Below are positions 19,974-54,754 of a stretch of DNA of 64,000 bases, one piece after another (within the stretch, counting starts at the first letter, position 1; each line of letters begins with the position of its first letter). Source of the stretch: Fimbriimonas sp. (lineage in GTDB: Bacteria > Armatimonadota > Fimbriimonadia > Fimbriimonadales > Fimbriimonadaceae); contig JARXAE010000027.1 in assembly GCA_029866005.1 (NCBI GenBank), forward strand, positions 906-64,905, given 5' to 3'. A model generated the notes under the pieces. It had not been told where the DNA came from, did not search any database, and worked only from the letters and a program-made list of their open reading frames with translations. Position numbers and translations under genes: made by a program.

Positions 19974-20849
19974 TTAGTTTACGCTAAACCGTCTGGCGGG
20001 GACTGTTTTGTCAATCCGTTTCAGCATCCCACAAAGAACCTCACCGGGGCCGAATTCGATGAATTCGGTCACTCCATCCGCGATCATGTTTCGAACGCTA
20101 TCGGTCCAGCGCACTTGATCACGGAGCTGTTGTTCCAAGGTTGTTCGCCAATCACTCGGATCCTCTATTGGTCTGGTGGTCACATTGGCGTAAACGGGTT
20201 TGCCTTTTTGGAAAACGGCGTTGGCAAGGGCTTGGGCCATCTGGCGACTTGGCTCGGTCATGAGCGGGCTGTGAAACGCCCCGCTGACGTTGAGAGGGAG
20301 AACTCGTTTCGCACCGGCTTCTTGGAGCAGCGGGATTGCGCTCGCCACGGCTTCGACCGCGCCGGAGATGACAGTCTGCCCGGGGCAGTTGTCGTTGGCT
20401 ACGACGACGATTCCGTCGACCTTGGCGAGGGTTTCGGTGATGGTAGGGATTTCGAGGCCGAGCACGGCTGCCATCGTACCGGGAGTGAGGTCTCCGGCGG
20501 ACGCCATGAGCTCTCCGCGTTTCTGAACGAGTCTCGCTCCATCCTCGAGCGAGAGGGTTCCAGAACAGACAAGCGCGGCGTACTCTCCGATGCTATGTCC
20601 GGCAAATACATCCGCAGCAAACTCGCTTGCGGCATAGGAGGCAACGCCGACGGTGTAGAGAGCGATCTGAGCGTTGTTGGTGGCTCGCAAGGTCTCTTCG
20701 TCGGATTCAAAGCAGAGCTTTGCAACATCGAATCCAAGAGTTGTGGAGACGTTTTCGAAGACTTCGCGGGCAGCGTTCGATGCATCAAAAACGTCCTTGC
20801 CCATGCCTGGGGTTTGAGAGCCTTGGCCAGGAAAAATCGCGGCGATCAT
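19974..20849 (-). CDS. fabD: Malonyl CoA-ACP transacylase
   Basis: FPGQGSQ, AGHSIGEY, ANDNCPGQTVISG, VSGAFHS, EFGPG. Confidence 0.96.
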   Translation of the reverse strand: MIAAIFPGQGSQTPGMGKDVFDASNAAREVFENVSTTLGFDVAKLCFESDEETLRATNNAQIALYTVGVASYAASEFAADVFAGHSIGEYAALVCSGTLSLEDGARLVQKRGELMASAGDLTPGTMAAVLGLEIPTITETLAKVDGIVVVANDNCPGQTVISGAVEAVASAIPLLQEAGAKRVLPLNVSGAFHSPLMTEPSRQMAQALANAVFQKGKPVYANVTTRPIEDPSDWRTTLEQQLRDQVRWTDSVRNMIADGVTEFIEFGPGEVLCGMLKRIDKTVPARRFSVN

Positions 20850-20888
20850 GTTGGCACTCAGTCTACCGTCGGGTAATCTTACTAGTTC

Positions 20889-20912
20889 ATGAAGCTCCTC
20901 CGCACGCGATAA
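20889..20912 (+). promoter_or_regulatory. Candidate leader peptide uORF MKLLRTR*
   Basis: ATG AAG CTC CTC CGC ACG CGA TAA, 9 nt after TAATCT (20874-20879) and 57 nt before the MFS start. Confidence 0.5.
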
Positions 20913-20969
20913 AGGCCCTCGTCATCTGGCGCCCTGTCCGCGCTCCGACTGCCCTAACTCATCCCTCGC

Positions 20970-22289
20970 ATGCAAAGCTCTTCCGCCTTAGGCTCCCCAA
21001 AAGATGTCTTATCGATCCCGGATTTTCGCAATCTCTGGCTAGGTCAGGCCATTTCGCGCATCGGGGATGCGTTCTATTTCATCGGCCCATTGTTTGTCAT
21101 CAAGCGACTCTTTGACGATGACGCGATGGTTGGCTACGTGGGTGCTCTAGAGGCACTGCCGTATCTGTTTCTTGGTCCGGTAGCCGGAGCGGTTGCCGAC
21201 CGGATGGACCGAAAGAAGATCCTGATATGGTCGGACATTCTTAGCTCGATCGTGCTGATAGCATTTCTGATCTACCTGATGGTGATCCCGAGCGACCCGC
21301 CGCGCTGGGCGTTCTATGTTTTTGGCCCACTCTTGGCGACACTTAGAGTGTTCTTTTTCCCCGCCAAGAACGCGGTGATACCACGCTTGGTGCCGCCGGA
21401 GAAACTCATGGGGGCTAACGCCTTCAGTGCAGCAACGGATCAGTTTGCTTGGCTGATCGGGAATATGCTCACCGCGGCGCTTGGCATGGTTGCTGATCGC
21501 TACAGTCCCGGGGCCTTCCTAAAGGTGATGGTGATTGCGAACGGGCTTTCGTTTATCATCTCGGTTTACTTTTTGCTCAAGCTGCCGGAAGTGATTCCGG
21601 AGCGAACGGATGTCGAGGAGTCGAAGATGTTTGACGACATTGTCAAGGGCATCCAGTACGCGAAGAAGGATGAGGTCATCGGACTCTCGCTTCTCGCAAG
21701 CGTGGGGCTGGCGTTGTTCATGTCGCCGTTCTTTGTTGTCTATCTTTCGATCAACAAAGCTTGGTTCGGCAATAAAGCGGCGCCACTGGCGATTATCGAG
21801 AGCTGCTTCATCATCGGGATGTTAGCAATGAGCTTCATCGTTCCGCGCATGAAGTTTCATCGTCCTGGGCTAGCCTACAGCTTTGGAATTGCGGTCGCCG
21901 GCGTCATGGTCATTTTCATGGGCTTCTCGCCGATCTTTGCGCTCTATTCGTTCTGGAATCTACTTTGTGGATTTGCGATTGGCGCGGTTGACGTTCCGAT
22001 GCGGACTTACCAGCAGCTCAAAGTGCCCGACGAGTATCGGGGGCGTGTCATGAGCCTCGGGAACCTGATTTGGATGGGCATCCAGCCGTTTGGTATGGCG
22101 GCGGGAGGCTCGCTCTTGATCATTCTCGGCCCGATTGGAATGCACGTCCTGATGGGTCTCGGGTTTACTCTGACGGGCCTGATGCCGCTTTTCAGCAAGG
22201 CATTTCGAGATGCGACCCTGCCCGACATGACTGGGGAGCAGCTTGAGGCAGTGCTTGAGAAAAGCGAATTGGAAGAGGCGAATCTTTGA
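20970..22289 (+). CDS. MFS transporter, MefA/EntS (DHA3)-like exporter
   Basis: FRNLWLGQAISRIGD, GAVADRMDRKKIL, IPRLVP...LMGANA, QLKVPDEYRGRV; about 12 TM segments. Confidence 0.88.
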   Translation: MQSSSALGSPKDVLSIPDFRNLWLGQAISRIGDAFYFIGPLFVIKRLFDDDAMVGYVGALEALPYLFLGPVAGAVADRMDRKKILIWSDILSSIVLIAFLIYLMVIPSDPPRWAFYVFGPLLATLRVFFFPAKNAVIPRLVPPEKLMGANAFSAATDQFAWLIGNMLTAALGMVADRYSPGAFLKVMVIANGLSFIISVYFLLKLPEVIPERTDVEESKMFDDIVKGIQYAKKDEVIGLSLLASVGLALFMSPFFVVYLSINKAWFGNKAAPLAIIESCFIIGMLAMSFIVPRMKFHRPGLAYSFGIAVAGVMVIFMGFSPIFALYSFWNLLCGFAIGAVDVPMRTYQQLKVPDEYRGRVMSLGNLIWMGIQPFGMAAGGSLLIILGPIGMHVLMGLGFTLTGLMPLFSKAFRDATLPDMTGEQLEAVLEKSELEEANL

Positions 22290-41176: not shown

Positions 41177-41233
41177 TCGATCCCCCCAGCCCTTCTCCTT
41201 TGCACCGTAGTGAAAAGGAGAAGGGCTTCAGAG

Positions 41234-44200
41234 TTACTTCGCAGATTTCAAAAGCTCTACGACGGCTCTTTCGATCTGCAGATCTCGGCCTTCCATCCAG
41301 GCGTTGGGATCGAACCAGACGGTGTGGTCCGGGCGGCGGCCACCGTTTTCAAGGTTCTCACCGTTGACGGCATACGCTCCGATGACTGGCATGCGAATTG
41401 TTCCGCCGTCCCACATGGAGGCGGCTCCGGTTCCGATGACGTAACCTGGAGTGCGTTCGCCAATGATTGGTCCGAGTCGGAGCTTGCGGAAGCCTTCGGT
41501 AATGACTTCGGCGTTGCTAAACGAGAAGGTGTTGCACATCAGTGCAGTTGGGAGCTCCAACGCGTCGCCGCGGTAGATATTCTCCGAGAGCTTCAGACCA
41601 AACTCACCGCGCGTGGTTCTGATGAGCCATGGAGAGCGAATAAGCGTATTCAGCACATCCACCGCAGTTGAACCTCCACCGTTAAAGCGGACGTCAATGA
41701 TGAGCCCCTTTCGGCCCTCGCCCTGGGTGCGAATCTCTCGTAGGAAGCGGTCGAGACTTGGTTTATCCATCGCTTGAATGTGGACATAGCCGAGTTTGCC
41801 TTCGCTGAGCTTTTCGACTCTGGCTCGGGTTTCATTGACATAGTTGTCGTAGTCCAGCGCCGACCGAAGGGCGGAGGAAGAAGGCTTGATCATAACGGTC
41901 TCAAACTTGCCATCTCGTTCGACCCGAAGGGTGACCTTGCGGGATGCCTTCTTATTGAGAAGTTGAGAGAACGAGGATCCGGCGACCTTCTCGCCATCGA
42001 CTTCGACGATCTTGTCGCCGACCTTGAGCATCATTGAGGGATGATCGGCGGGTGAGTTCGCAATGACTTTTCCAACCACAGCCGCTCCATCTCGGGCTAG
42101 GGAGACTGGGTCAAGGTCGATTCCGAGGAATGCAGTCGAGTCGGTACCGGTGCCGGGGTAATCCATGGGAGGGGCAGTTGCACCCAGGTGCGAAGACTCA
42201 AGCTCTTCCATCATCTCGCCCATCATTCGGTAGAAATCAGCGCGGTCGTAGGCGAACGGCACCAAGGCGGCGAACTTGGTTTTGATCGCCTTCCAATTCT
42301 TACCGTTCATCTTTGGGTCATAGTATTGCGAGTCAAGGGTCCACCAGATGTCCTCAAAGAGCGCTCGTTCTTCCGCCTTGGCGTTCACAGTGTAGCTTGC
42401 GCTCATTGCGATGGGGGCGAGGCTCGAAGCTGGCCCAGCGACGTTGATACTCGCCATCGTTCCGGCGTTGAGGACGTACAGCTTTCCTCCGTTAAGGAAA
42501 CCACCTTGGATTCGGACTCCAGGCGTAGCGGTGGCGATGAGAGTGGACGCCGCGCCAGTGGCAGGATTGATCTGAGCCAATCCTGCTTCGGTGAGGGCGA
42601 TGATGGACTTTCCGTCGGCGGCGGGAATTGCTCCGCCGCAGCCGGTGGTAGTCAGTCGTCGGAGTCTAGCCTCGAGGTTCGGTTCGTAGACCTTAACTTC
42701 GACAGTGGGCTTGTCCTTCTTCGTGGTGTCATCAATCTTGTCGAGATCATCCTCGGTAAAGGCGATGTCAGCGGGGATGAGATCAATCACATAGAGATCA
42801 GCTTCGTCGTACTCGGGCGAAATGAAGAAGAGTGATCGACCATTTCCTGTGAACTGAGGGACGCTGACCGAACCACGTTGGGGCCGGTTGACCATTTTTG
42901 CAATGGTCGTTACCTTGCCGCTTTTCACGTCAACGATGGACACCAAGGTGCGCCGACCTTGGATAATGCTGACCGCAAGGTAGGCATTATCCGGCGACCA
43001 ACTGACGAGAGGGGTTCCTTCGTAAGCATCGTTGAAGTTCGCCTTGAGGAGCGTTCGCATCCCTTTGCCTTCGTTGTCAACCAGGCAAAGCTCGGTGGCA
43101 CCTTTATGGAAGGCGACCATTTTGCCGTCGGGAGAGACGACTGGACACATGGTGTCAGTAGCTTCATCAGCAACGAAGTCTCGTGAGACGCCTTCAAGGT
43201 TCACCTGCTTAATGCGACGCCGACCCTTCTCCATGGTCGTATAGAGTCCAGTTTTGGAATCGAGCCAAGTGATTCCGTAGTCGCGGCCAGTGTTGCTGAC
43301 GACTCTGCGGGTGGTTCCGCCTTTCTCCGGGAGGAGGAAAACATCTCCCCTTGCCGCCGCAAGGATTCGTTTTCCGTCGGGGGAGACCGAGAACTCGGAG
43401 ATTCCGCTCGCAACGTTGACTTCTTGGAGTGGGTTCGTGCGGTCATCGGCTGGGACTTCGATTTTCACTTCCTTTGTTTGTCCATCGAGGGTGTCAAGAA
43501 CGCGCAACTCAGATTCGAATTCGTAGGCGATGAAGCGGCCGTCTCGGCTGGACGACGGATTTCGGCTGGATCCGTTCGTGTGTGTGGTTAGCGCCTTGTC
43601 GCCCTTCAGGAGTCGCCAAATGTTCGGCGCTCCACTTCGGTTTGTAACGGCGATGAGGGAGCCATCGGCTTGAGGGATTGGGAACTGGTCGGTATTCTCG
43701 TTGTTGGTCAGCCGTTTGTGGTTGCTAAGCGGAACGGTATTATCGGCGACCCAAATCTCGGGAAGGGCTGAACTGATCATGCCCATCTTTTGCCACGCTG
43801 TCTCCCTGTAGGCGCCTCGGTTGTAGTAGACCTTAGAACCATCTTGCGAAAGGCTCGGGGAGAAGCAAGCTTCGAAGGGGTGGCTTGTCAGGCGTTGAAG
43901 GTCACCACTGGCAACTGGAACTCGGAAAATATCACCACGCGACCAGAGGGAGGTCGATCCGTAGATGAATCGTCCATCTGGTGAAACGGCAGTTGGGAGT
44001 TCCGAGGATGAGTCGAACGTGATCCTTCGCAGGTCGCTTCCGTCTGGCTTCAGAGTGAAGATGTCGGCACTGCCGTAACGTGAGGAGGCGAATGCAAAGC
44101 GCGAGCCATCCGCAAACCAGACGGGTCGGGTATCCGGAGACGAATGGACGGTGAGACGAATAGCTGTTCCCCCGGTTCGAGGTACGGACCAAATATCGCC

Positions 44201-44332
44201 CTGCCATGAAAACAGAATCGTCGAGCCGTCTGGCGAGATGGCCGGGTACTGAATCCTTTTGATCTCCTCGGCCATTGCCGAAGCGGAGACCAGGGCGAGT
44301 GCGCTGAGGGTAATCCTACAAAGTCGCTTCAT
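41234..44332 (-). CDS. Tricorn-like S41 family protease (PD40 propellers, PDZ, catalytic domain)
   Basis: Repeated SPDG propeller blades, PDZ (LGIDL...SPAD...KVGDKI), GYVHI, DVRFNGGG, SFSNAE. Confidence 0.93.
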   Translation of the reverse strand: MKRLCRITLSALALVSASAMAEEIKRIQYPAISPDGSTILFSWQGDIWSVPRTGGTAIRLTVHSSPDTRPVWFADGSRFAFASSRYGSADIFTLKPDGSDLRRITFDSSSELPTAVSPDGRFIYGSTSLWSRGDIFRVPVASGDLQRLTSHPFEACFSPSLSQDGSKVYYNRGAYRETAWQKMGMISSALPEIWVADNTVPLSNHKRLTNNENTDQFPIPQADGSLIAVTNRSGAPNIWRLLKGDKALTTHTNGSSRNPSSSRDGRFIAYEFESELRVLDTLDGQTKEVKIEVPADDRTNPLQEVNVASGISEFSVSPDGKRILAAARGDVFLLPEKGGTTRRVVSNTGRDYGITWLDSKTGLYTTMEKGRRRIKQVNLEGVSRDFVADEATDTMCPVVSPDGKMVAFHKGATELCLVDNEGKGMRTLLKANFNDAYEGTPLVSWSPDNAYLAVSIIQGRRTLVSIVDVKSGKVTTIAKMVNRPQRGSVSVPQFTGNGRSLFFISPEYDEADLYVIDLIPADIAFTEDDLDKIDDTTKKDKPTVEVKVYEPNLEARLRRLTTTGCGGAIPAADGKSIIALTEAGLAQINPATGAASTLIATATPGVRIQGGFLNGGKLYVLNAGTMASINVAGPASSLAPIAMSASYTVNAKAEERALFEDIWWTLDSQYYDPKMNGKNWKAIKTKFAALVPFAYDRADFYRMMGEMMEELESSHLGATAPPMDYPGTGTDSTAFLGIDLDPVSLARDGAAVVGKVIANSPADHPSMMLKVGDKIVEVDGEKVAGSSFSQLLNKKASRKVTLRVERDGKFETVMIKPSSSALRSALDYDNYVNETRARVEKLSEGKLGYVHIQAMDKPSLDRFLREIRTQGEGRKGLIIDVRFNGGGSTAVDVLNTLIRSPWLIRTTRGEFGLKLSENIYRGDALELPTALMCNTFSFSNAEVITEGFRKLRLGPIIGERTPGYVIGTGAASMWDGGTIRMPVIGAYAVNGENLENGGRRPDHTVWFDPNAWMEGRDLQIERAVVELLKSAK

Positions 44333-54272: not shown

Positions 54273-54754
54273 AGAATCGAACTTTGATCTGGGTTGCAGT
54301 TCTTACATTCTGGATATGCGGAGGACTTAATGAAGGTCTTGCAAAAGACATAGCGATCTTTGGTGCCCAGCCAGACTTTCTGCTGGTCGCAACAACTGTG
54401 ATCAGTATGCTCTCGGATATGCGGGGTGCCGCGATGGCCGGATTCACAGGCGGCTTCTTTCAGGGGGCGATCACCGGTGCAAACATGTGGCAGTACGTGG
54501 TGACCCGGTTGCTTGTTGGTTGGATTGGAGGATCACTCATCGAGTTGCGATTTCAACGAAACCTAGTGATCGCCGCGATGGCTTGCTTTGTCGCCACGAT
54601 TTTCTCCGGTGTCCTCTTCTTGTTCTTAACTTCTCAACCGAACATCCTTGGGAGTCTGAGAGATACACTGATATCTGCGATGTACAACGCCGTTATCGCC
54701 GCTCTGGTCTATCCACCAGTGGAGAGGCTGTCCGGCGTCAAAGCGAGACAATAA
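54269..54754 (+). CDS. mreD: Rod shape-determining protein MreD
   Basis: QPDFLLV, AGFTGGFFQG; about 5 TM segments; GTGA overlap with mreC. Confidence 0.85.
   Translation: MKNRTLIWVAVLTFWICGGLNEGLAKDIAIFGAQPDFLLVATTVISMLSDMRGAAMAGFTGGFFQGAITGANMWQYVVTRLLVGWIGGSLIELRFQRNLVIAAMACFVATIFSGVLFLFLTSQPNILGSLRDTLISAMYNAVIAALVYPPVERLSGVKARQ

Follow-up and report, generated by a model that had tools for sequence, protein, structure and literature searches.

A near-leaderless mini-ORF predicted to pair with the start region of a core MFS transporter gene in Fimbriimonadaceae

The DNA considered here is a 64,000-nucleotide stretch of a metagenome-assembled Fimbriimonas sp. genome (the window; contig JARXAE010000027.1, from an assembly of 2.8 Mb in 38 contigs), in which a seven-codon upstream open reading frame (uORF) precedes a gene for a transporter of the major facilitator superfamily (MFS). 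On the plus strand, the near-leaderless uORF ATG AAG CTC CTC CGC ACG CGA TAA (20889-20912), encoding MKLLRTR, begins 9 nt after the hexamer TAATCT (20874-20879), a candidate -10 box of the GG-TAnnnT type recognized from its sequence and from clade comparison. A -35-like hexamer, TTGGCA (20851-20856, plus strand), lies 17 nt 5' of this box and overlaps the 5' end of the divergent fabD gene region. Downstream of the uORF, a 57-nt spacer containing 27 C and 12 G (20913-20969, plus strand) leads to the putative regulated gene (20970-22289, plus strand), whose 439-residue product is, by profile scores, a transporter of the DHA3 / MFS_1-MFS_3 type. Because a TAA in the MFS frame occupies 20955-20957, the ATG at 20970 is the sole possible start of this gene. 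No purine-rich Shine-Dalgarno (SD) sequence was found 5' of 20970 at the window locus, nor any terminator-like hairpin between the uORF and the gene (20880-20969). An earlier reading of these nucleotides (the original prediction) had listed the box, the uORF, the spacer composition, the in-frame stop, the MFS start and the lack of an SD sequence and of a terminator, and each of these statements is exact.

The promoter elements recur among relatives. The window clade retains TTGNNA at a distance of 16-19 nt from the -10 box, and in the compared sequences L031-L033 the hexamer and its preceding GGG are conserved with a 9-nt discriminator that varies. The orthologous boxes read TATAAT, TATAGT, TATTAT or CATAAT and lie 6-12 nt 5' of the uORF ATG, and given this distance transcription is expected to start at or within ~3 nt of the uORF AUG. 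Neither a terminator nor a further promoter is called between the uORF and the MFS gene, and one transcript probably carries both.

The original prediction had staked itself on the uORF being present in orthologues, and this is what we find: 14 of 15 syntenic loci of the same genus contain a 6-8-codon ATG open reading frame (ORF) after a -10-like box, 76-172 nt 5' of the MFS start, and the pattern recurs across 80 further loci. A uniform rule, asking for an ATG that opens an ORF of 4-9 codons with a TATAAT-like box 5-12 nt 5' of it, was applied to 76 related MFS loci. Upstream of the MFS gene it identifies such a mini-ORF on the sense strand at 44 of them, with seven codons as the mode; on the reverse strand of these regions the number is 8 of 76, and in equally long segments of coding sequence (CDS) it is 1 of 76. 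Among loci whose MFS protein is at least 40% identical to that of the window, the rule is satisfied at 36 of 49. A looser pattern (a -10-like box, 6-11 nt, an ATG and 4-9 codons) occurs 19 times on both strands of the window, that is in 128 kb, which corresponds to ~0.02 expected per 120-nt spacer. Judged by these sequence comparisons, the uORF upstream of the MFS gene is more than a chance ORF, recurring as it does at the orthologous gene in dozens of diverged genomes. The presence of this candidate leader, its place right after the -10 box and its length are all conserved, its nucleotides and its peptide change, and it is in this form that the proposal of a leader mini-ORF controlling the MFS gene is upheld.

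The length constraint falls on a single frame. In the ATG frame the first stop is reached after 4-9 codons in all 31 representative lineages, and after exactly seven in 21, whereas the first stops of the other two frames fall anywhere between 0 and 459 codons. A sister family keeps a mini-ORF of 6-7 codons (MIQTRQN, MTIRFA, MLYAIIH), preceded at two of three loci by a GGAGGG-type sequence and not by a -10 box; such SD-like-led versions indicate that translation of a ~7-codon ORF is what is kept, not the 5' end. Together, the one-frame length, the fixed -10 distance and the SD-led versions in another family suggest that the uORF is translated. The same three features speak against an untranslated element, in which the mini-ORF would be RNA structure or a repressor's DNA operator built around a CGTCAC..GCGC..GCGC..CGACC core, its ATG (6-12 nt from the box) and its stop being by-products of pairing. 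Such an element would agree with a central core that is invariant, not co-varying, in 11 sequences and occurs a single time in the window's genome, where no second copy of the motif was found. It would also agree with the enrichment in the spacers of CGACC (19 of 31 spacers against 4.8 expected, as (C/A)CGACC ~10-25 nt upstream of the MFS start; the window version is CCGAC at 20945-20949, plus strand) and of TCGTC (15 of 31), for neither of which pairing offers an explanation; GCCAC/GGTGG is enriched as well, without a full explanation. The core, however, is not conserved beyond two clades, and we regard an untranslated mini-ORF as very improbable. A riboswitch was ruled out on similar grounds, the core being confined to two clades and the one-frame constraint pointing to translation.

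In nearly every lineage, the fold of minimum free energy (MFE) pairs the uORF with the MFS start codon and the bases immediately 5' of it. The specificity of this pairing was assessed by a partner-permutation test, in which the uORF arm was paired with its own 3' partner or with partners swapped among the 31 representative lineages. For the MFS region -25 to +24, own partners give -16.6 kcal/mol and permuted partners -11.1 kcal/mol (z = -10.1), and none of 20000 permutations attains the observed sum; for the region -14 to +3 only, the values are -11.5 and -6.9 (z = -10.9). The negative controls behave differently, with own and permuted energies of -13.3 and -13.1 for CDS +60 to +109 (z = -0.6), -14.5 and -15.2 for CDS +200 to +249 (z = +1.5), and -12.8 and -13.3 for the sequence upstream of the uORF (z = +1.0). 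As the lineages in these statistics are related, count-based p-values overstate the case; the permutation test with its negative controls is nevertheless the most robust evidence that we have. In the family profile, MFS positions -14 to -1 pair with the uORF arm with probabilities of 0.33-0.85 (0.54-0.85 for -12 to -1), and on the uORF side the pairing peaks at codons 4-6.

In most of the distant orthologues a purine-rich, SD-like stretch (GAAG, GGAG) forms the 3' strand. The Leu/Phe codons of the uORF (CUUCU) are complementary to it, and many matched changes are seen, as in the pairs CGAUCUUCG / CGAAGAUCG, UGUUUCGUU / AACGAAACA and ACUUUCCUU / AAGGAAAGU. RNAalifold, run on MAFFT alignments, recovered just the invariant inner hairpins and a stop-adjacent hairpin; it missed the outer helix because the register of that helix shifts between clades, and it was therefore replaced by the permutation test. 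An Rfam scan of the leader returned no relevant covariance-model match, even at E<=10. At the family level, the predicted uORF-to-start helix is the best-supported regulatory feature of the locus, and it is the one that the original prediction, whose mechanism did without a hairpin, had missed.

In the window, the MFE fold places the 5' strand of this outer helix (P1) inside the uORF (20891-20909, plus strand), as GAAG 20891-94, CU 20898-99, GCA 20902-04 and GCGA 20906-09, and its 3' strand over the MFS start codon (20966-20983, plus strand), as UCGC 20966-69, UGC 20971-73, AG 20976-77 and CUUC 20980-83. The predicted pairs, GAAG/CUUC, CU/AG, GCA/UGC (at the AUG) and GCGA/UCGC, are short and interrupted. 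Within the spacer the same fold contains the inner helices P2 (20914-16/20951-53, plus strand) and P3 (20919-21/20946-48, plus strand), and fold and comparison together define the hairpin P4 (20928-20944, plus strand), GGCGC-N7-GCGCU, which lies within the core motif CGTCAY..GCGC..GCGC..CGAC. All four window-clade sequences adopt the P1-P4 layout. The P4 stem is invariant in 11 sequences, and in L032 five base pairs are retained through a shifted register; in L032, too, P1a is changed on both strands, from GAAGCU/AGCU..CUUC to GAUCC/GGAUC.

Based on the above data, we propose that the element is probably a translational attenuator that responds to ribosome occupancy of a near-leaderless uORF. 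Promoter geometry suggests that transcription would start within a few bases of the uORF AUG, and the 5' end of the mRNA would then be a seven-codon ORF translatable without an SD sequence. This uORF would provide one side (5') of a long interrupted helix and the MFS initiation region, from -14 to ~+14 and including the AUG, the other (3'); the pairing with the start is supported statistically across the family and only predicted for the window. Formation of the helix would occlude both the MFS start and the uORF start. A ribosome on the uORF, whether initiating, slowed, stalled or slow to terminate, would cover the 5' strand and free the MFS start, and by analogy with toiL-topAI and with the cat, cmlA and erm leaders, MFS translation would be expected to rise with the time that ribosomes dwell on the uORF. 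The likeliest inducers would be compounds or conditions that stall ribosomes. Two hallmarks of translational attenuators are found here, a short ORF directly upstream of the gene and, at the family level, the overlap of that ORF with a helix at the start site. Attenuation through an intrinsic terminator, on the other hand, was ruled out, the leader containing no terminator.

The published case most alike is toiL-topAI, in which a short uORF is likewise paired across to the start region. In this E. coli system a hairpin spans the whole short uORF and the ribosome-binding site (RBS), and stalling anywhere in the uORF is proposed to open it (PMC12121999). Several antibiotic classes act as inducers, no single arrest motif is required, and Rho terminates transcription inside the untranslated gene (PMC12121999). 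The Fimbriimonadaceae element differs in that its uORF is near-leaderless and has no SD sequence, its peptide varies freely, the gene concerned encodes an MFS transporter and not a toxin-antitoxin pair, and the host lineage is Armatimonadota.

Several observations weigh against an attenuator of this kind. TAATCT shares only 3 of 6 positions with TATAAT, and a promoter scan, at its thresholds, called neither TAATCT nor TTGGCA. The uORF-start pairing is weak in the window clade (-10.7 to -13.0 kcal/mol, ranking 14th to 25th among partners), and the MFE of the window leader is no better than that of its shuffles (z = 0.39). Since this z is not significant, the window alone cannot carry a claim of structure, and since the pairing of its clade is weak, support for the helix comes from the family level and from homology of layout; we take the window to be a weak-helix member of what appears, from the comparison of lineages, to be a well-supported family. 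About a quarter of the loci with an MFS protein at least 40% identical to that of the window (13 of 49) are without a rule-defined uORF. The MFS gene is, moreover, a syntenic core gene of the family and no obvious acquired resistance gene, and because the leaders have neither a conserved arrest motif nor a repeated codon, no inducer can be named. Finally, more distant MFS paralogues or orthologues (L019/L074, L081, L101, L020, L116) have no uORF, and in these a CATAAT or CACAAT box lies 9-13 nt before the MFS start codon, the transporter gene itself being apparently leaderless.

Apparently leaderless paralogues would agree with the mini-ORF being a constitutive device for ribosome loading or expression tuning. 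In a lineage relying on leaderless initiation and poor in SD sequences, a 5' mini-ORF would then recruit 70S ribosomes, the start region would be unfolded or reached by re-initiation, and output would follow ribosome availability. This would also suit a window MFS gene without an SD sequence, the many window genes, fabD included, with a -10-like box 5-11 nt before the ATG, and uORF peptides that are unconstrained and in some relatives just 2-5 codons long. However, a co-varying helix that also buries the uORF AUG would be costly for a purely positive element, and most of the distant orthologues do have a purine-rich, SD-like sequence, which is exactly the pairing target of the uORF. A structured spacer of 52-150 nt is in addition unfavourable to re-initiation, and we consider a constitutive loading device unlikely.

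The attenuator proposed here also departs from the mechanism first put forward for this locus. That mechanism invoked a macrolide-type +x+ arrest on MKLLRTR with Rho as the main readout, the spacer serving as a rut site from which a stalled ribosome would block Rho, as in tnaC, and no helix. The peptide evidence is divided. All three distinct window-clade peptides (MKLLRTR, MKLIRTR and MKQIRIR) end in R-x-R, as do Mef(E)L and ErmDL (PMC4335068; +X+ motif, PMC12583479), and a +x+ triplet is also present in two unrelated leaders (MTRIRLL and MKFRLDH). The R/K-x-R/K macrolide arrest motif of the original prediction is thus kept, among the aligned loci, in the window clade, where the resemblance to Mef(E)L and ErmDL stands, but it is missing from most orthologous leaders (for example MNTIVLN, MTTVVFH, MTGTVLL and MKQPQLL). 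More than 25 different leader peptides occur, with no conservation of sequence, and MATIVKL, MTLLKR, MNRTATLR, MRITHPI, MKHIDLR, MQHPLFL and MRIQKLL give a further idea of their range. In addition, conservation of R-T-R has a second explanation, because its codons are also predicted to pair with the MFS AUG. The R-x-R ending could, speculatively, make the window-clade leaders macrolide-responsive. Attenuation specific to an amino acid was ruled out, no leader containing a repeated codon.

The readout by Rho fares similarly. The original prediction had proposed to check the conservation of both the uORF amino acids and the C-rich, G-poor spacer, and it holds for the spacer only: the spacers of all 31 lineages contain more C than G (the skew averages 0.25, compared with 0.01 in CDS), and among 52 putative gene leaders of the window this one ranks first in C-minus-G excess (+14). 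The genome encodes Rho (553 bits against a cut-off of 509), and, as this mechanism would have it, no intrinsic terminator intervenes. The spacer is, however, only 52-57 nt long in the window clade and in its nearest relatives (group B), against 52-150 nt overall, and in the window it is predicted to be partly paired. In toiL-topAI, Rho termination follows translational repression and is not the sensor (PMC12121999). An arrest peptide read out by Rho ignores the strongest conserved feature, the uORF-to-start helix, and we judge this mechanism quite improbable, although it is possible that Rho, acting on the C-rich untranslated leader, adds a transcriptional layer to translational attenuation.

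The end of the uORF has features of its own. Its stop is TAG in 21 of 31 lineages against 11 of 52 putative window genes, and the context is TAG-C in 20 of 31 against 2 of 52, the lineages in both comparisons not being independent; the window uORF ends in TAA-A. That UAG-C serves as a termination pause is speculative. The stop-adjacent hairpin, in one large subgroup, has the G of the stop codon as its first base, and compensatory changes occur in it (AU:7, GC:4, UA:1). Complementarity is also seen, in one subgroup, between the loop of the stop-adjacent hairpin (CCGCCACC) and a GGGUGGC farther downstream, ACCACC/GGUGGU being a variant of the pair, and the two sequences could form an alternative helix or a pseudoknot.

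A more far-reaching version of the attenuator can be drawn from these features, namely a family-wide, peptide-independent "pioneer-ribosome timer" that would sense termination and translation capacity and control a core exporter. A 70S ribosome would load on the 5'-terminal AUG while the RNA is being synthesized, and its stay would be set by the length of ~7 codons, the UAG-C stop and the hairpin that starts inside the stop codon. If this ribosome were still present when the MFS start emerged, the ON state would be captured; if it had gone, the helix would lock both start codons and the C-rich leader would be exposed to Rho. Taken jointly, these steps make a tentative scheme that we hold to be rather unlikely. 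Were it true, the sensor would not depend on the peptide and would operate in a phylum in which leaderless initiation seems to be common.

Other known leaders share parts of this design. In cat, cmlA, fexA and ermC, the RBS of the resistance gene lies in the 3' strand of a stem, and the short leader ORF overlaps the 5' strand (reviewed in PMC5418344). As at the window locus, no terminator is involved, and cmlA and fexA also encode MFS exporters (PMC5418344). Those leaders, however, have their own SD sequences, drug-specific conserved arrest peptides and compact hairpins and belong to mobile resistance genes, whereas the Fimbriimonadaceae element precedes a syntenic chromosomal core gene, with a 52-150-nt spacer containing inner helices and no conserved peptide motif. 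The leaderless polycysteine small ORFs of mycobacteria are first cistrons, on which stalled ribosomes block an RBS-sequestering duplex (bioRxiv 10.1101/834739). They sense cysteine through consecutive Cys codons, in contrast to the Fimbriimonadaceae uORFs, which contain no run of a repeated codon and share no residue. The eight-codon leader of mef(E), MTASMRLR, ends in R-L-R before an MFS macrolide pump, and ErmDL reads MTHSMRLR (PMC4335068); MKLLRTR, with seven codons and a terminal R-T-R, is similar, and MsrDL may also be compared (PMC10314930). Unlike the window locus, which has no terminator and whose pump is not a Mef orthologue, mef(E)L uses a Rho-independent terminator and an AGGAGG RBS. 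The TnaC peptide of the E. coli tna operon carries conserved residues for arrest, responds to free tryptophan at the termination step and involves no helix to the downstream start site. The window locus resembles tnaC in the C-rich, G-poor sequence right after the leader stop and in the presence of a rho gene; it differs in that the peptide of its family is unconserved and the helix is the conserved feature.

The original prediction knew of no description of its combination in this lineage. A short antibiotic-sensing uORF with RBS occlusion and Rho-dependent termination is already known in toiL-topAI (PMC12121999); nothing was found for this lineage. The regulatory logic is that of toiL-topAI and cat/cmlA; the instance, judged by Rfam and the literature searched, is undescribed and introduces no new principle. 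A full-text literature search returned no paper discussing leaderless genes in Armatimonadota, and to our knowledge gene regulation in this phylum is essentially unstudied. What distinguishes the element is the near-leaderless uORF, the free-running peptide, the long C-rich spacer with inner helices and the syntenic core MFS gene. It suggests that Fimbriimonadaceae use leaderless mini-ORFs as cis-regulators, that the MFS exporters under ribosome-sensing control include a conserved chromosomal gene of a free-living, uncultured lineage, and that a conserved arrest peptide is dispensable for such sensing. As a compact natural part of ~100 nt, the element would also lend itself to tests of the interplay between leaderless initiation, termination context (UAG-C) and start-site occlusion.

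The transporter itself is not a Mef orthologue by its profile scores. Called "MefA-like" in the original prediction, it reaches 66.5 bits with the Mef(A) model NF000245 (cut-off 675), less than with the EntS model (90 bits) or with the generic DHA3 model TIGR00900, its best NCBIfam match at 170 bits (cut-off 319.6, not reached); Tet(V) scores 64. The label is true at the superfamily level only, and the similarity that the protein does show is of the EntS/LplT order. A sequence search of the PDB with the MFS protein returned no relative. In a phylum survey of an even sample of 151 genomes, the window's own included, the MFS subfamily was detected at E<=1e-30 in 11 of 12 Fimbriimonadaceae (the window's own genome uncounted), in the single genome of the sister family (1 of 1) and in three of the remaining genomes searched.

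Upstream, fabD (19974-20849, minus strand; TIGR00128, 299 bits) is divergently oriented, so that the 120-nt intergenic region is a divergent promoter region; rnhC follows directly downstream and overlaps the MFS stop. This order, with fabD pointing away from MFS and rnhC, is kept in many genomes of the same genus, and the closest relative locus is 95% identical. fabD also appears to be leaderless, with TAGACT (plus-strand 20860-20865) 10 nt before its ATG on the minus strand, and a GGTAnnnT box, which appears as ..TACC on the plus strand, is kept in all orthologous loci at ~10-16 nt from the start of fabD. The -10 boxes of fabD and of the uORF are 8 nt apart, which places the two promoters back to back. 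Within the MFS CDS, 87 nt from its start, the only terminator-like hairpin called (21056-21072), with a T-rich tail (to 21082), GCGCATCGGGGATGCGT TCTATTTCAT, lies over a conserved GDAFYF motif; the frequency of such a match (21056-21082) is within chance for the region.

Elsewhere in the window, by crude gene calls, a TAnnnT box lies 5-11 nt before the start codon of 11 of 52 putative genes, where ~5 are expected by chance (examples are the genes starting at 2108, 4806, 8644, 13349, 41233-44332 on the minus strand, and 57361), and an SD-like motif precedes only 16 of the 52. From these counts, many genes of this Fimbriimonas genome may be translated from leaderless or SD-independent starts. 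Two contigs titled "Methanoregulaceae archaeon" (L058, JADZEW010000016.1) and "uncultured archaeon" (L097, CAWHLK010000036.1) carry a Fimbriimonadaceae-type MFS gene with the uORF leader; the leader peptide of L058 is identical to that of the Fimbriimonadaceae contig L057, and mis-binning or mislabelling is likely for both contigs. The only other intergenic same-strand match of the loose mini-ORF pattern in the window, MRRT (four codons and TAA, 54316-54330), begins 6 nt after TACATT and lies upstream of a GTG-start gene at 54487.

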